Virus record (IMG/VR): IMGVR_UViG_3300045243_000029 | Span: 1 to 38,441 of that record | Reading direction: 5' to 3' (one strand) | DNA: 38,441 nucleotides | Source of the DNA: a virus | Shown: positions 1,768-38,441 of the stretch, piece after piece | How the letters are laid out: the number at the start of each line of letters is the position of its first letter | How positions within the stretch are numbered: position 1 is the stretch's first letter | Made by a program: the position numbers and the translations under genes | Notes under the pieces: generated by a model | Told to the model about the DNA's origin: nothing | The model's database searches: none | The model's input: the letters and a program-made list of their open reading frames with translations, nothing else

Positions 1768-2478
1768 ATGACCAGAGACGAAATTCTGACGAAGGTAAAG
1801 AACGGTGAATCACTGCGCGGCGCGGACCTGCGCGGCGCGGACCTGAGCGGCGCGTACCTGCGCGGCGCGTACCTGCGCGGCGCGTACCTGCGCTACGCGT
1901 ACCTGAGCGGCGCGGACCTGAGCTGCGCGGACCTGGGCTACGCGAACCTGGGCGGCGCGAACCTGAGCGGCGCGGACCTGGGCTACGCGAACCTGCGCAG
2001 CGCGAACCTGCGCAGCGCGAACCTGCGCAGCGCGGACCTGGGCGGCGCGAACCTGCGCGGCGCGAACCTGAGCGGCGCGAACCTGAGCGGCGCGAACCTG
2101 AGCGGCGCGAACCTGAGCGGCGCGAACCTGAGTAATCTTAAGCCAGGGTCAGAGCTTGCTCTTATCCGCACATTAATCGTACCTCAGACTGGACCAGTTA
2201 TTGGCTGGAAAAAGTGTAGAAACGGCGTGATTGTAAAGCTTCAAATCGGCGCTGATACGCCCAGACATAACGCGCATGGGCGCAAGTGCCGAGCTAAGTC
2301 GGCTAAGGTTCTTGCCGTGTACGGCGCTAAGGCCGGGGTGTCAACTTGGCGGGAAGATGTATTTTATAGAAAGGGCAAGACCGTAACCTGCCACCTATGG
2401 GACCCGAACCGCTGGAATGAGTGCAGCGGCGGTATCCACTTTTTCATTACCCGAGAAGAAGCCGAAGCGTATGAGTAG
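1768..2478 (+). CDS. Pentapeptide-repeat protein 1 with a conserved C-terminal domain (236 aa)
   Basis: 21 consecutive A(D/N/Y)LxG-type pentapeptides, then [13 protein letters not shown]...[21 protein letters not shown] lies upstream of the ATG. Confidence 0.9.
1813..2127 (+). repeat. 21 tandem 15-bp units (CTG NGC NGC GCG NAC) encoding the pentapeptide repeats
   Basis: Read directly. Every unit uses CTG for Leu and GCG for Ala, and third codon positions are invariant. Confidence 0.95.
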
Positions 2479-14271: not shown

Positions 14272-14562
14272 TTAAACATTCCTAACCCCCATGTTACAGA
14301 ATCGGCACAACAACTGCCTATCTCGTCCTGTATAATGGAAGTGATCTCGAGCAAGTCTTTCCGGACCGGGCGCTAGTTCGCAAATAGCACAGCAACCGTC
14401 CTGCGCCCTAAGTCTGGTCTCATATTCCAGGTCTGTTAGTCGTCGCAGCTTAGACGGAAACTTGGTTTTTACCGTACGCGCCTTACGCCTAACTGGACCT
14501 GGGCGCATCCGATGCTTTAAACAACCACTGGGGACGGCCATGCATCTATTATACCATAGCAT
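14272..14562 (-). CDS. Endonuclease VII-like HNH protein (up to 96 aa)
   Basis: DGCCAICELAPGP...ARDHFHYTGRDRQLLCRFCNMG core. AT-richer than the flanks. The start is uncertain (M1, M8 or M19). Confidence 0.7.
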   Translation of the reverse strand: MLWYNRCMAVPSGCLKHRMRPGPVRRKARTVKTKFPSKLRRLTDLEYETRLRAQDGCCAICELAPGPERLARDHFHYTGRDRQLLCRFCNMGVRNV

Positions 14563-14656
14563 CGGGATGGCGCTTCATACACGAACCTGCCCTGTGTATC
14601 GCGAAAGTTCTTGTACTGTACAGGAACAGGGTAGTTTAGGCACAGGAGAAATTGCC

Positions 14657-15277
14657 ATGCTCGCCTACCACAACGACCCCGCAGTCAAAGCGAAGTACCT
14701 CCGTCGTGTACGCGCCCACGCCAAAGCTGACCGTATCATCCAGGGAACAGGCTGGGACAACGGCCGAGGCTGCGCCATTGGCTGTACGCTAGAGGCTTAC
14801 GACCATGCGCGGTACCCGATCGAGTTGGGAATCCCGGTGGGGTTGGCGCGGCTGGAAGATCAGATCTTCGAGCGACTGCCCGAGTCCGAGGCGATGAAGT
14901 GGCCAGCGGCGTTCCTGTCTGCGATTCCAGTGGGGGCGGACCTCACGCTGGTCTGGCCGCGGTTCGCACTGTGGCTGCTGCGGGGGGGTCCGGAGCGGTC
15001 GCTTGAGCTACCAGCCGTCAAGTCAGCGGTGGATGGCGTGGCCGCGCTGTTTGAGCGGTGGGTGAATACGGGCGATAAACCGCCAGTCGCGGACTGGCGG
15101 GCAGCACGATCCGCCTCCTCCTCCTCCTCCGCCTACGCCGCCGGCACCGACTACGACGCCTACGCCGCCTACGCCGTGGACGCCGCCTACGCCCATCGTA
15201 GCTTCTGGAATGCAGCAGCCAAGGAACTACTGCGGCTCTTGCGGGCGCCCTCACCCGAAGAGGGAGAGCGGACGTGA
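14657..15277 (+). CDS. Hypothetical protein (206 aa) on the opposite strand inside the structural operon
   Basis: AGGAG lies 8 nt upstream of ATG 14657. Sequence MLAYHNDPAVKAKYLRRVRAHAKADR..., with an SSSSS-AYAAGTDYDAYAAYAVDAAYA low-complexity stretch near the C-terminus. The longer listed ORF from 14462 overlaps the Endo VII gene. Confidence 0.7.
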   Translation: MLAYHNDPAVKAKYLRRVRAHAKADRIIQGTGWDNGRGCAIGCTLEAYDHARYPIELGIPVGLARLEDQIFERLPESEAMKWPAAFLSAIPVGADLTLVWPRFALWLLRGGPERSLELPAVKSAVDGVAALFERWVNTGDKPPVADWRAARSASSSSSAYAAGTDYDAYAAYAVDAAYAHRSFWNAAAKELLRLLRAPSPEEGERT

Positions 15278-32673: not shown

Positions 32674-34362
32674 GTGCGTTCCACCAATTTGAATCAATTA
32701 AGCCTCATACAGGATACGGAGCCAACGGTATCTGAGCAGCATTCGCCCCACGTGGGTCAAAACGCACTCAGACCCTATCAGTCACGGATCTTGGATGAGG
32801 CCCTTTCCTTAATCGGCCTGGGGAAGTCGCCGCTAATCGAAATGGCAACCGGAACGGGCAAGACCCGTCTAGCTGCTGAACTGGTGCGGCGGCTTCCCCA
32901 GGCACGGACGTTATGGTTAGCTGAGCGGCGCGAATGGCTCGAACAAGCGCGCGGTTCTTTGCTGTATCTGGACGAGCCGATAGGGTGGGAAGCACCAGGC
33001 AGATACAGCTCCAACGAACGGATTGTGCTGGCAAGCAAGGATACAATCCGGCAACCAGACAGGTTAGAACGGCTCAGGGACTTTCGGCCGTTCGACCTGA
33101 TCGTAACAGATGAGGCGCATCACAGTGCAGCGCGAACCTATACGGTGGTACGACAGACTTACCCTGGCGCTGTGTTGGTTGGGCTTAGCGCTACTCCTGA
33201 CCGCTTTGATAAGCGCGGTCTGGATATGTTTTCTGCTCGCACGACACCATACGGAATTGTTCAAGCTGTTGGCGATGCCTGGCTAGTCCGGCCCATGGCC
33301 AAGCGCTGTAAGGTCAAGTCAGTAGACCTGAGCGGTATCGGTTACCGGGCTGGTGACTTTGCTGTCAACGAACTGGACAACCTATTTGCAGGGGAGGAAA
33401 CGATACATGGATGCGTCCGAGGCATTTTGGAGAACGTACAGAGCCGCCCTACAATCGTCTTCTGTCCAGGAATTAGCAGCGCGCACAGAACGGCTGAAGT
33501 CCTTGACCGTTACAGTGGCAGACTGGTTTCCCGGGTTGTCACTGGTCGAAGCAGTCCAGACTTTAGAACTGACGCGTTTAAACATTTTGGCAAAAGCTAT
33601 CAGTTTCTCGTCAACGTTGCAGTAGCTACAGAAGGGACGGACCTGCCCGATGCCGCGTGTATCTCATTCCTCCGACCGACGCACAGTCCGGCGCTGTTCC
33701 GGCAAATGTTGGGGCGAGGTCTCAGGCCAGCCCTGTCTATGCATGTGGACTCCACAAGAGAAGAAAGGGAGGCCATTCTTCGGGACGGACCGAAGCCTAA
33801 CTGTCTTGTTCTTGACTTCGTGGGAGTCACGGGACGGCACTCAGTGGTCACTGTTGCGGACGTCTTTAGCACCGGGCCGGCCGCTAAACTGGTTGGAAAT
33901 CGTATCGATACTGAAGCGGATACCGGAACTGCAATCGACGTATTCGAAGCGATCCGGACCGAAGAAGAAAAGGAACAAGCCGCCAAGGAAGCGAAAGAAC
34001 GGCGCCGACAGCGCGAAAAAGACAAGCGCCAAGCCATTACAGGGAAAGTCACTGTCGAAGTCACAGAAGCGGCGCTTATTGGCCTCGGTAGCCTGTCCGT
34101 ACGGGATGATCAATTGTCGATGCGGCCGGTCAGCCCAGGTCAAGCGCAAGAGCTAACGCGGTTAGGCATTAGTATAGGCGACGGCCCCAGGACGGCCGCG
34201 TACGCACGAAAACTAATCCTTGACCGCAGAGAACAGCTCGGGTTAATGTCAGAGAAACAGGCGGCGTTCCTGCTGAGGCATGGACAGGGCGGGCCTGAAA
34301 CTACAAAAGCACAAGCAAGGGGGCTGACATGGAAATTGCTAAAGCGATGGAAGAGATTGTAA
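32674..34362 (+). CDS. Superfamily-2 DEAD/DEAH (ResIII-type) helicase (562 aa)
   Basis: Walker [13 protein letters not shown] box IVTDEAHH, motif III LSATP, and a later QMLGRGLR motif. GTG start. Confidence 0.85.
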
Positions 34363-35159
34363 GTGCGAATAAAGAGAAGCGCTGCGCGGACCTGAGCTGC
34401 GCGGACCTGAGCTGCGCGTACCTGCGCGGCGCGGACCTGAGCTGCGCGGACCTGAGCTGCGCGGACCTGCGCTGCGCGAACCTGAGCGGCGCGAACCTGA
34501 GCGGCGCGAACCTGAGCGGCGCGAACCTGAGCGGCGCGAACCTGCGCGGCGCGGACCTGAGCTGCGCGGACCTGAGCTGCGCGAACCTGCGCGGCGCGAA
34601 CCTGAGCGGCGCGAACCTGAGCGGCGCGAACCTGAGCGGCGCGTACCTGAGCGGCGCGAACCTGAGCGGCGCGAACCTGAGCGGCGCGAACCTGAGCTGC
34701 GCGGACCTGATCTGCGCGGACCTGAGCTGCGCGGACCTGCGCTGCGCGAACCTGAGCGGCGCGAACCTGAGCGGCGCGTACCTGAGCGGCGCGGACCTGA
34801 GCGGCGCGTACCTGAGCGGCGCGGAAAACTTACCGGATATGTCATGGACTTTGATTGTGCCAGAAACAGGTACAGTAACGGGCTGGAAAAAGTGTCGCCA
34901 CGGAGTGATCGTAAAGTTGCTGATTCCAGCGTCGGCCAAGAGACATAACGCCACTGGACGTAAATGCAGGGCAGAGCGGGCTAAGGTTCTTGAGGTAATC
35001 GGCGCTGACGAGGGAATTTCTTTTCAGGACGGTTCTGTTAGGTACGTAAAGGGTAAGACCGTGAAGGCTGTCGATTACGAGCCTGACAGGTGGCAGGAAT
35101 GCGCTGGGGGTATCCATTTCTTTATCACCCGCAAGGAAGCAGAAGACTATGTTATGTAA
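34329..35159 (+). CDS. Pentapeptide-repeat protein 2 with the same C-terminal domain as protein 1 (276 aa)
   Basis: 29 consecutive pentapeptides, then [13 protein letters not shown]...[15 protein letters not shown]. Overlaps the helicase 3' end by 34 nt. Confidence 0.9.
34386..34820 (+). repeat. 29 tandem 15-bp units (GCG NAC CTG NGC NGC)
   Basis: Read directly. Same unit and same codons as the array at 1813-2127. Confidence 0.95.
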
Positions 35160-35559
35160 TACCGTGCCCGACCTGTCCAAGTTAACCGACCTGCAATGTT
35201 CGGTTTGGCTTAAGGACCAGGACGGGCTAAGGCCGATTGAGATAGGGGAACAGCTTGGGCTTACGCCGCGCCGGGTCTGTAATATTAAGGCCAGACTCCG
35301 GGTCCTGGGCTTTCCGGTAAACGACCTGTGGAGCGCTAAGCGGCTACAGGCTGAGATGTACGGTCCTAGCCAGTTTGAGCCGGAAGACGATGAAGAGCCG
35401 GACCGGGACGAACCGGTGCAGATGGGGCCGGTCCAGCGCTGTGCCTGTGGATTGGTGATGCCCTGCAATGACCATGATAGTATTAATCCTTACCTAGTAG
35501 GAGTTAAGAACAGAAATAACACGACCTATCCGGACGGGGACGAGGACGATTCTTGGTAA
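35149..35559 (+). CDS. HTH protein resembling sigma-70 region 4 / LuxR-type DNA-binding domains (136 aa)
   Basis: [39 protein letters not shown], followed by an acidic tail and a Cys cluster. Confidence 0.6.
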
Positions 35560-36386
35560 GCCCTGAACAGGTAGAGCAGGCCCGGTGCTACTCCATTCTG
35601 AGGCTTATCCCGGGAAGCGCTAAGCTGAAACGGCACGGACGCGGTTACATGACAAACTGTACCTTCCATGACGACACAACCCCGTCTATGTCGCTTATCA
35701 AGTTTGACGATGGCCACTGGCGGTATAAGTGCTTTGGGTGCGGTGCCAGCGGAGACCCGGTTACGTACCTGGCCAAGACAAGGGGAGTCGACTTCATGAA
35801 AGCAGTCAAGCAACTGTCCGATGCGGCTCGAGCGGCGCCGGTCAAGCCTCAGCCTGTGGCCTATTACGACTACTTCGACGAGCACGGCGTGTTACTGTAC
35901 CAGTCGATCCGGTACGAGCCGAAAAGCTTCCGACTGCGCAGGCCTAACCCGGAGAACACCGGGGACGGGCCTAAACTGGCTTGGATCTGGGACCTGTGCG
36001 GCGTCAGGCGGGTCCTGTATCGGCTGCCTAAGCTGATTTGGGACGGCGGCGTAAAGGACATCACCGGAGAAGAAAAGGCTACGATCTATTACGTCGAAGG
36101 GGAAAAGGATGTTGAGACACTGGAAAAGTACGGCCTACTGGCCACTACGCACGCTGGCGGCGCTGGCGCGTTCCGTGAGGAACTGCTACAGCCGCTTAAG
36201 GGCCGCCGTATCGTTGTGGTACCGGACAGGGATGACCCAGGCATGCAGCTCGGCCGACGGGTCTTTGCTGCCGCTAGATCGCAGGGCAGCCAGATCGGTT
36301 TTATCCTACTGCCGCGCGGGAAGGACGTTACGGATTTCTTCGGAGAAAATGGAACAGTTAAGGAACTCTTGTCGCTGGTCAAATAA
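35553..36386 (+). CDS. DNA primase (CHC2 zinc finger plus TOPRIM), 277 aa, TTG start
   Basis: CTFHDDTTPSMSL...CFGCGASGD zinc finger; YYVEGEKDVETL and VVVPDRDDPG TOPRIM acidic motifs. Confidence 0.85.
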   Translation: MVSPEQVEQARCYSILRLIPGSAKLKRHGRGYMTNCTFHDDTTPSMSLIKFDDGHWRYKCFGCGASGDPVTYLAKTRGVDFMKAVKQLSDAARAAPVKPQPVAYYDYFDEHGVLLYQSIRYEPKSFRLRRPNPENTGDGPKLAWIWDLCGVRRVLYRLPKLIWDGGVKDITGEEKATIYYVEGEKDVETLEKYGLLATTHAGGAGAFREELLQPLKGRRIVVVPDRDDPGMQLGRRVFAAARSQGSQIGFILLPRGKDVTDFFGENGTVKELLSLVK

Positions 36387-38275: not shown

Positions 38276-38441
38276 TGAGTAAGTCGGTCTGTGTCTTTGC
38301 CGGGGCCCGTGGCGGTCAGGAAATGATGGCGGATATGTGCTATATGGGCACGCGACTGGCCGAACGGGGCTGGAACGTAGTCTATGGCGGGTCGGGCAAG
38401 GGCGTAATGGGAGCTGTAGCGGCCGGTGTCGTGGCGGTCGG
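38275..38441 (+). CDS. LOG-family protein, 5' part, truncated by the window end. Same gene as 1-497.
   Basis: ATG 38275 (MSKSVCVFAGARGGQEMMADM...). From 38315 the sequence repeats bases 1-127. Confidence 0.85.
   Translation, partial: MSKSVCVFAGARGGQEMMADMCYMGTRLAERGWNVVYGGSGKGVMGAVAAGVVAV
38315..38441. repeat. Terminal overlap, right copy; unit genome length is 38314 bp
   Basis: Same 127-nt string as 1-127. Confidence 0.95.

Follow-up and report, generated by a model that had tools for sequence, protein, structure and literature searches.

Why do two protein-coding arrays of 15-nucleotide (nt) repeats in one viral genome differ from unit to unit only in ways that change the protein? The arrays lie in an uncultivated virus record of 38,441 bp, rated complete (CheckV 100%); the whole of this stretch was analyzed and is called the window here. 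Our answer, to which we assign a probability of about 0.75, is that concerted evolution acts on both arrays as coding tandem repeats, with the exposed residues kept diverse by selection and the scaffold fixed.

The two genes and their setting

Genes A and B (Table 1) encode proteins of the same architecture. Both proteins matched the PF00805 profile (Pfam E = 2.8e-47 and 1.2e-57, the latter for gene A) with tandem A(D/N)LXX units, and both matched PF19062 (DUF5758; 101.9 and 91.7 bits versus a cutoff of 26.9; E = 3.4e-26 for gene A). Among PDB sequences, the repeat part matched solved pentapeptide repeat proteins (PRPs), namely, designed beta1, All3740, Np275/276, QnrB1 (3.9e-14), and MfpA (3.6e-05). 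A single-sequence AF2 model of the repeat had pLDDT values of ~90 over residues 20 to 120 and a beta bridge at each five residues, and we predict with high confidence a beta-solenoid, specifically a right-handed quadrilateral beta-helix with four units per coil. The DUF5758 domain of gene B was modeled as a small, beta-rich fold (pLDDT 86); comparison of this model with the PDB gave no fold neighbor (best E = 0.5), and DUF5758 was not mentioned in any paper of the literature searched. In both proteins the domain has invariant Cys, Arg, and His residues in the motifs GWKKC, RKCRA, and GIHFF.

Gene B is flanked by genes for an SF2 helicase and a DnaG-type primase, and gene A is preceded by an endonuclease VII gene and occupies the distal end of that transcription arm. 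A megablast search of 24 kb of the window against cultured phages found no close whole-genome relative, and for the helicase and primase neighbors of gene B only distant relatives were found in IMG/VR. The next open reading frame (ORF), at 35149-35559 (136 aa, no Pfam match), begins before gene B has ended, so that its start and the gene B stop codon overlap (35149-35159); its counterpart also adjoins the gene B ortholog in contig L005 (described below). This arrangement suggests translational coupling of gene B with the ORF within the helicase-PRP-primase block.

Table 1. Positions of the features discussed. Coordinates are those of the window, except in the last row.
Feature	Coordinates	Strand	Description
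Gene A	1768..2478	+	236 aa; short N-terminal leader, pentapeptide repeat array, C-terminal DUF5758 (ORF and Pfam)
Array A	1813..2127	+	21 15-nt units, a single codon for each residue
71-nt exact repeat, copy in array A	2060..2130	+	Identical to 34474-34544; longest between the loci
Decayed edge unit of array A	2122..2136	+	GCG AAC CTG AGT AAT; only site of a synonymous variant (AGT)
DUF5758 domain of gene A	2176..2463	+	Residues 137-232 (Pfam)
SF2 helicase	32674-34362		On one side of gene B
Gene B	34329..35159	+	276 aa; architecture as gene A (ORF and Pfam)
Array B	34386..34820	+	29 units GCG-NAC-CTG-NGC-NGC, no synonymous variation
Array B units 5-8	34446..34505	+	Identical to units 23-26 (multi-unit block duplication)
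71-nt exact repeat, copy in array B	34474..34544	+	Identical to 2060-2130
Array B units 23-26	34716..34775	+	Second copy of the 60-nt block
DUF5758 domain of gene B	34851..35141	+	Residues 175-271 (Pfam)
DnaG-type primase	35553-36386		On the other side of gene B
Pentapeptide genes of RW, GB2A, and RLK	L107 6489-7559, L108 992-1687, L109 993-2063		

One codon per residue in both arrays

An initial annotation, made from the letters of the window, described 50 repeat units that follow the scheme GCG-NAC-CTG-NGC-NGC, with invariant Ala and Leu codons, fixed third positions, and exclusively nonsynonymous differences, in a genome that elsewhere uses mixed Ala and Leu codons and is less GC rich. Each of these statements held. 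The 21 and 29 units comprise 250 codons; array A may be read as 21 units of CTG-NGC-NGC-GCG-NAC or as 20 full units in the GCG register from position 1822. Neither array has an indel, and the 15-nt period is strict throughout (TRF scores, 412 and 656). Ala is GCG 50 times and Leu is CTG 50 times, and the other residues also have a single codon each: Asn AAC, Asp GAC, Tyr TAC, Ser AGC, Arg CGC, Gly GGC, and Cys TGC. The variable columns of the unit are 4 (A/G/T), 10 (A/C/G), and 13 (G/T/A), all of which are first codon positions. Changes at second positions are rare: column 14 changes from G to A in three TAC codons of array A, and column 11 changes from G to T once, giving the one Ile codon (ATC) in the arrays. 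Units 4 and 22 of array B, which lie just before the duplicated blocks (Table 1), are one base apart (AGC>ATC). Third positions are fixed and all differences are nonsynonymous throughout both arrays as delimited in Table 1. The codons AGT, AAT, and CTT occur in the edge unit of array A; it is typical of tandem arrays that terminal units escape homogenization.

Across the whole genome, GCGNACCTGNGCNGC with no more than one mismatch occurred 49 times versus 0.49 expected, and all occurrences were confined to the two arrays. In the genome GCG makes up 20% of the Ala codons and CTG 38% of the Leu codons, and the nonrepeat parts of genes A and B also have mixed codons. Under genome usage, the codon choices in the arrays have a log10 probability of -105.7. 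The GC content of the arrays is 74%, versus about 57% for the rest.

Because variants shared among units count as single events, the evidence for nonsynonymous-only variation is modest when the window is considered alone. If the variants are shuffled among the units, they require a minimum of only ~8 to 11 independent mutations. Counting the single-step neighbors that are present gave 0 of 26 synonymous and 11 of 42 nonsynonymous, P ~0.005.

Three frames on the opposite strand run across the arrays, at 34301-34954 (-), 34339-34845 (-), and 1983-2171 (-), with lengths of 217, 168, and 62 aa; they encode repeated peptides of the FAPLR or RRSGS type. We judged these frames to be by-products of the stop-free 15-nt repeat and not genes.

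Homogeneity and copy number in related arrays

The closest relatives of gene B were two metagenome genes, P0001 (contig L005) and P0002 (contig L006). Their leaders and flanks are 83 to 86% identical to those of gene B at the nucleotide level, with many third-position differences. For the C-terminal domain, pS was 0.72 to 0.73 between gene B and either relative, which is saturated, and 0.42 between the two relatives, whereas pS within the arrays of the window was 0 over the 250 codons. The arrays of L005 and L006 are themselves perfectly homogeneous, with no internal synonymous variation, but their unit is GCG-NAC-CTG-T(A/C/T)C-(G/A)GG; they have Ser TCC, Gly GGG, and Arg AGG where the window has AGC, GGC, and CGC. 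The number of units also varies, from 29 in gene B to 13 and 9 in the orthologs. Identity within arrays, replacement of codons between orthologs, and change in copy number form the classical signature of concerted evolution. The comparison with related genomes thus supports both the concerted evolution and the rapid change in repeat number that the initial annotation had proposed.

The L005 and L006 arrays, which differ from each other in unit number and order, have no synonymous differences in ~42 synonymous sites; if the units were independent, ~18 would be predicted. This result excludes a single old burst of amplification and means that homogenization (or constraint) must continue.

Similar arrays are found in cultured phages. 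The array is the same in Caulobacter phages RW and RLK: 46 units of GCG-RAC-CTC-(AGC/CGC/CAC)-(GGC/AGC), with no synonymous variant. The array of phage GB2A lacks exactly 25 of RW's units (375 bp), leaving 21 versus 46, and a stretch of 134 identical nt spans the deletion junction; the RW array resembles a duplication of a ~25-unit block. Apart from this deletion, the differences between the RW and GB2A genomes amount to two single-base changes and two extra Cs (PMC11053796). Since the end domain of the RW protein is not DUF5758, the behavior is general to phage pentapeptide arrays and not specific to DUF5758. The arrays of Ralstonia phage BOESR1 and of a Thiohalocapsa phage are nearly homogeneous, with few synonymous variants, those of BOESR1 sitting inside a duplicated five-unit block. 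In more distant relatives, the cluster E mycobacteriophages such as DrDrey, the arrays are ordinary and their codons mixed. Thus, homogenization is common in the family but not universal.

For a wider view, we extracted the arrays from 80 IMG/VR loci and 15 metagenome loci with DUF5758. Together with the window, this survey (L001-L106) gave 79 distinct arrays of at least 8 units each, which are not phylogenetically independent. There was no synonymous variant in 40 of the 79. The consensus unit was specific to the lineage, being, for example, GCG-AAC-CTG, GCC-AAC-CTC, GCT-AAC-TTG, or GCA-GAT-TTA, and across the arrays the fixed codons included all four Ala codons and six Leu codons.

These comparisons also bear on a simpler history, in which a single recent burst amplified one unit, positive selection followed, and no homogenization continued. 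[quoted passage not shown] That history is hard to reconcile with L005 and L006, the flanks of which have had time to reach a pS of 0.42 while their arrays changed in unit number and order and acquired no synonymous differences. With about half of the 79 lineages in the homogeneous state, bursts would have to be universal and always recent, and RW and GB2A already show one event of unit gain or loss. We therefore consider a lone burst to be improbable.

Variation at exposed and buried residues

In the pentapeptide fold, as reportedly described by Vetting, Hegde, Blanchard, and colleagues, the Ala (i-2) and Leu (i) residues point inward and the other three point outward. Diversification at the outward-facing residues had been proposed from the window, and we analyzed each codon position across units with the single-step neighbor test applied to the 79 arrays. 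At the exposed codons, 342 of 1,638 possible nonsynonymous neighbors of the consensus were present versus 73 of 980 for all synonymous neighbors, a ratio of 2.8 (Fisher P = 2.5e-21, for arrays that lack phylogenetic independence). The buried codons gave the opposite result: the fractions were 0.057 nonsynonymous versus 0.089 synonymous for Ala and 0.021 versus 0.108 for Leu. Because Ala and Leu point inward, the buried codons serve as an internal control, and the nonsynonymous excess is limited to the three variable, exposed codons, which supports the proposal. The mixtures of D and N, S and R, and G and C could be old polymorphisms kept by selection and not the result of continuing positive selection.

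In one close pair the array also outpaces the C-terminal domain. Two loci that are 95% identical at the nucleotide level (L103 and L104) differ in 16 of 72 array codons versus 6 of 109 codons of the C-terminal domain.

Descent of whole units and the bias toward G/C-ending codons

One genome, G037 (L110, G037:C1:12878-14786), has two tandem, recently duplicated Pentapeptide+DUF5758 genes. Their leaders and end domains are nearly identical, and their arrays share nucleotide columns, yet at the same position one gene has 22 Asp-rich units and the other 30 Tyr-rich units. For Ala, column 1 has GCC without exception and column 4 likewise GCG; for Asp, columns 2 and 5 have invariant GAC and GAT, respectively. 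Because the codons are specific to the column, homogeneity reflects the descent of whole units and not a codon preference. The two copies also show that the surface diverged fast once the gene was duplicated.

A lack of synonymous variation might instead be due to constraint on the nucleotides, that is, purifying selection on synonymous sites for translation kinetics, for mRNA or DNA structure, or for a protein-binding motif. The codon bias of the arrays is what such a constraint might produce. Compared to the C-terminal domains of the same genes, the arrays are richer in codons ending in G or C (mean GC3, 0.78 versus 0.54); the enrichment was present in 73 of the 79 arrays (Wilcoxon P = 4e-13, with arrays that are not phylogenetically independent). 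Of 78 arrays, 64 have GCG or GCC fixed for Ala, compared with 50% of C-terminal Ala codons that have G or C at the third position, and GCG-NAC-CTG is common to the window and the L005 and L006 orthologs despite saturated flanks. A constraint of this kind, however, should not give a fixed unit that varies by lineage through every Ala codon and six Leu codons, nor different invariant codons for the same residue in different columns, as in G037. Furthermore, GCG is merely the third-ranked Ala codon in the genome, shuffled sequence folds as well as the array DNA does (z = 0.57), and close relatives differ in the number and order of their units. We regard nucleotide-level constraint as very unlikely to be the explanation.

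The G/C-ending enrichment and the retention of GCG-NAC-CTG do imply that homogenization is not purely drift-like and that a directional force acts as well. This force may be selection on the DNA or mRNA, or it may lie in repair or conversion that is biased; the family-wide occurrence of the enrichment points tentatively to the latter, operating on phage DNA.

We also rejected hairpin-promoted slippage, given the folding result (z = 0.57); translational codon optimization, given the 20% share of GCG among the genome's Ala codons and the column-specific codons of G037; and a phase-variable contingency locus, given that the unit is 15 nt and all changes are in frame, so that length and surface are all that changes.

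Probable exchange between the two loci

Arrays A and B use the same codon set, and the identical 15-mers noted earlier as common to both loci number six. The longest exact repeat between the loci is 71 nt, in spite of the divergence of the C-terminal domains, which are saturated at synonymous sites (pS = 0.72) and 62% identical in amino acids. Among 2,943 pairs of arrays with C-terminal identity of <70%, A and B were the only pair with at least six identical units; all other pairs had four or fewer. This sharing supports the suggestion in the initial annotation of recombination between the loci. We consider it more likely than not that the loci exchanged sequence, through gene conversion or replacement of an array; convergence within one genome could have given the same likeness. 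Gene A has no close ortholog among 5.8 billion proteins (the best was 69% identical) that would polarize the exchange.

Shared sequence of this kind raises the possibility that the arrays were collapsed, expanded, or cross-threaded during assembly, in which case the unit number, unit order, and sharing between loci would not be real. The contig is from an uncultivated virus, the arrays consist of 315 and 435 bp of near-identical 15-mers, and 71 nt are exactly common to both loci. The 127-bp overlap of the contig ends suggests a de Bruijn assembly with k = 127; the longest exact repeat touching the arrays is 71 nt, all 127-mers are unique, and in such an assembly the path through the arrays would be unambiguous. 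Nor do assemblers recode codons, and homogeneity is also present in independently sequenced cultured phages (RW = RLK, and BOESR1). We think it highly improbable that the pattern is an assembly artifact. Minority length variants would be lost even in an unambiguous k = 127 assembly, and in general unit numbers from short-read phage assemblies call for long-read confirmation.

The two ends of the window, 1-127 and 38315-38441, are a terminal repeat of exactly 127 bp. This overlap may be the k = 127 de Bruijn overlap of a circular or circularly permuted molecule, and perhaps no biological terminal repeat exists.

Targeted hypermutation by a diversity-generating retroelement or a similar system, although it would suit the restriction of variation to a few columns and the adenines that begin AAC and AGC, is hardly credible as the source of the nonsynonymous variants: the complete 38-kb genome has no reverse transcriptase (RVT_1), the varying columns are not adenine specific (column 13 varies among G, T, and A, and the second adenine of AAC never varies), there is no template/variable repeat pair, and relatives vary at different bases.

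A proposed mechanism for unit turnover

Concerted evolution of coding repeats could work here as follows. Slippage during replication, or unequal homologous recombination, would copy and remove single 15-nt units and multi-unit blocks. The gains and losses would always be in frame and would occur much faster than point mutations accrue. Such turnover would erase neutral synonymous differences, so that an array collapses onto one nucleotide unit. At the same time, selection would keep or favor a mix of residues at the three outward positions of A(D/N)LXX and hold the inward Ala and Leu fixed. Arrays A and B probably swapped sequence by gene conversion or array replacement. The outcome would be a rod that changes rapidly in length and surface on a conserved scaffold with a conserved DUF5758 end domain. 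A fast-evolving host partner may be the selective agent.

Relation to known systems

The pattern in the window is a known mode of evolution, concerted evolution with diversified surface positions. In the WD40 repeats of Podospora HET-E/D/R and the repeats of Xanthomonas TAL effectors, the units are nearly identical in DNA and are homogenized and reshuffled by recombination; in these fungal NLR and TAL-effector repeats, variation is concentrated at a few positions of the binding surface. Those units are longer (126 bp for WD40 and 102 bp for TALE), have other folds, and belong to cellular genes with known ligands, whereas the units in the window are 15 bp long and belong to a phage.

Repeats within proteins have been reported to diverge under positive or relaxed selection faster than orthologs do, with beneficial changes spreading (Persi, Wolf and Koonin 2016, PMC5120217). 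This "horizontal" evolution of repeats is biphasic and ends in conserved individual repeats (PMC5120217). The phage arrays, in contrast, appear to stay in the turnover phase.

Several phage proteins have the same two-domain architecture, Pentapeptide plus DUF5758, including those of BOESR1 (WLW40576.1), Thiohalocapsa phage LS06-2018-MD04 (TPMD04_58), and DrDrey (gp57). The window differs from these PF00805 and PF19062 examples in having two diverged paralogs with arrays of one codon set. Like behavior is seen in RW gp016 and GB2A gp015, in the Riverwalk cluster (PMC11053796), which are homogeneous and show a unit indel as the window arrays do; they differ in their end domain and in coming from cultured phages. 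The GB2A deletion is mentioned in passing in that paper, in which codon homogeneity is not discussed (PMC11053796). Beyond this remark, we found no published description of such behavior in phage pentapeptide arrays. The present analysis adds the comparison of gene B orthologs, the neighbor test on 79 arrays, the G037 columns, the sharing between A and B, the G/C-ending bias, and the k-mer argument.

The DNA mimics Qnr, MfpA, and AlbG have the same repeat fold as the window arrays; Qnr and MfpA lack the DUF5758 end domain. Acidic and basic residues number 6 and 8 in array A (net charge, ~+2) and 11 and 5 in array B (net charge, ~-6), and the window arrays are not consistently acidic. A strongly electronegative, DNA-like surface and interaction with gyrase characterize the DNA mimics of the Qnr and MfpA type.

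Possible roles and uses of the arrays

Proteins with Pentapeptide and DUF5758 domains form a large phage family of no known function, with thousands of members of 153 to 298 aa, whose genes typically lie in early regions or those for replication. When scaffold and end domain are conserved but surface and length outpace the genome, the molecule bears the usual mark of an arms race, and the array genes are reasonable candidates for host-takeover or counter-defense factors. We infer an arms-race role only from this evolutionary pattern. The variable positions show which residues matter for testing such a role, and the arrays could be sensitive markers of very recent phage divergence.

A more speculative proposal, which we consider unlikely, is that the arrays are "evolvability cassettes." Standing variation in rod length and surface, G/C-biased homogenization by which units would stay perfect and prone to recombine, and exchange of units between A and B would together provide an inhibitor or decoy that can be retuned against a fast-evolving host defense or replication protein, a phage counterpart of the hypervariable repeats of fungal and bacterial NLRs.

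The window contains one other coding tandem repeat, a degenerate 9-bp repeat at 15111-15193 with the consensus CCGCCTACG (9.2 copies, 72% matches). It encodes an Ala/Tyr/Asp-rich stretch near the C terminus of the ORF at 14462-15277 (+).
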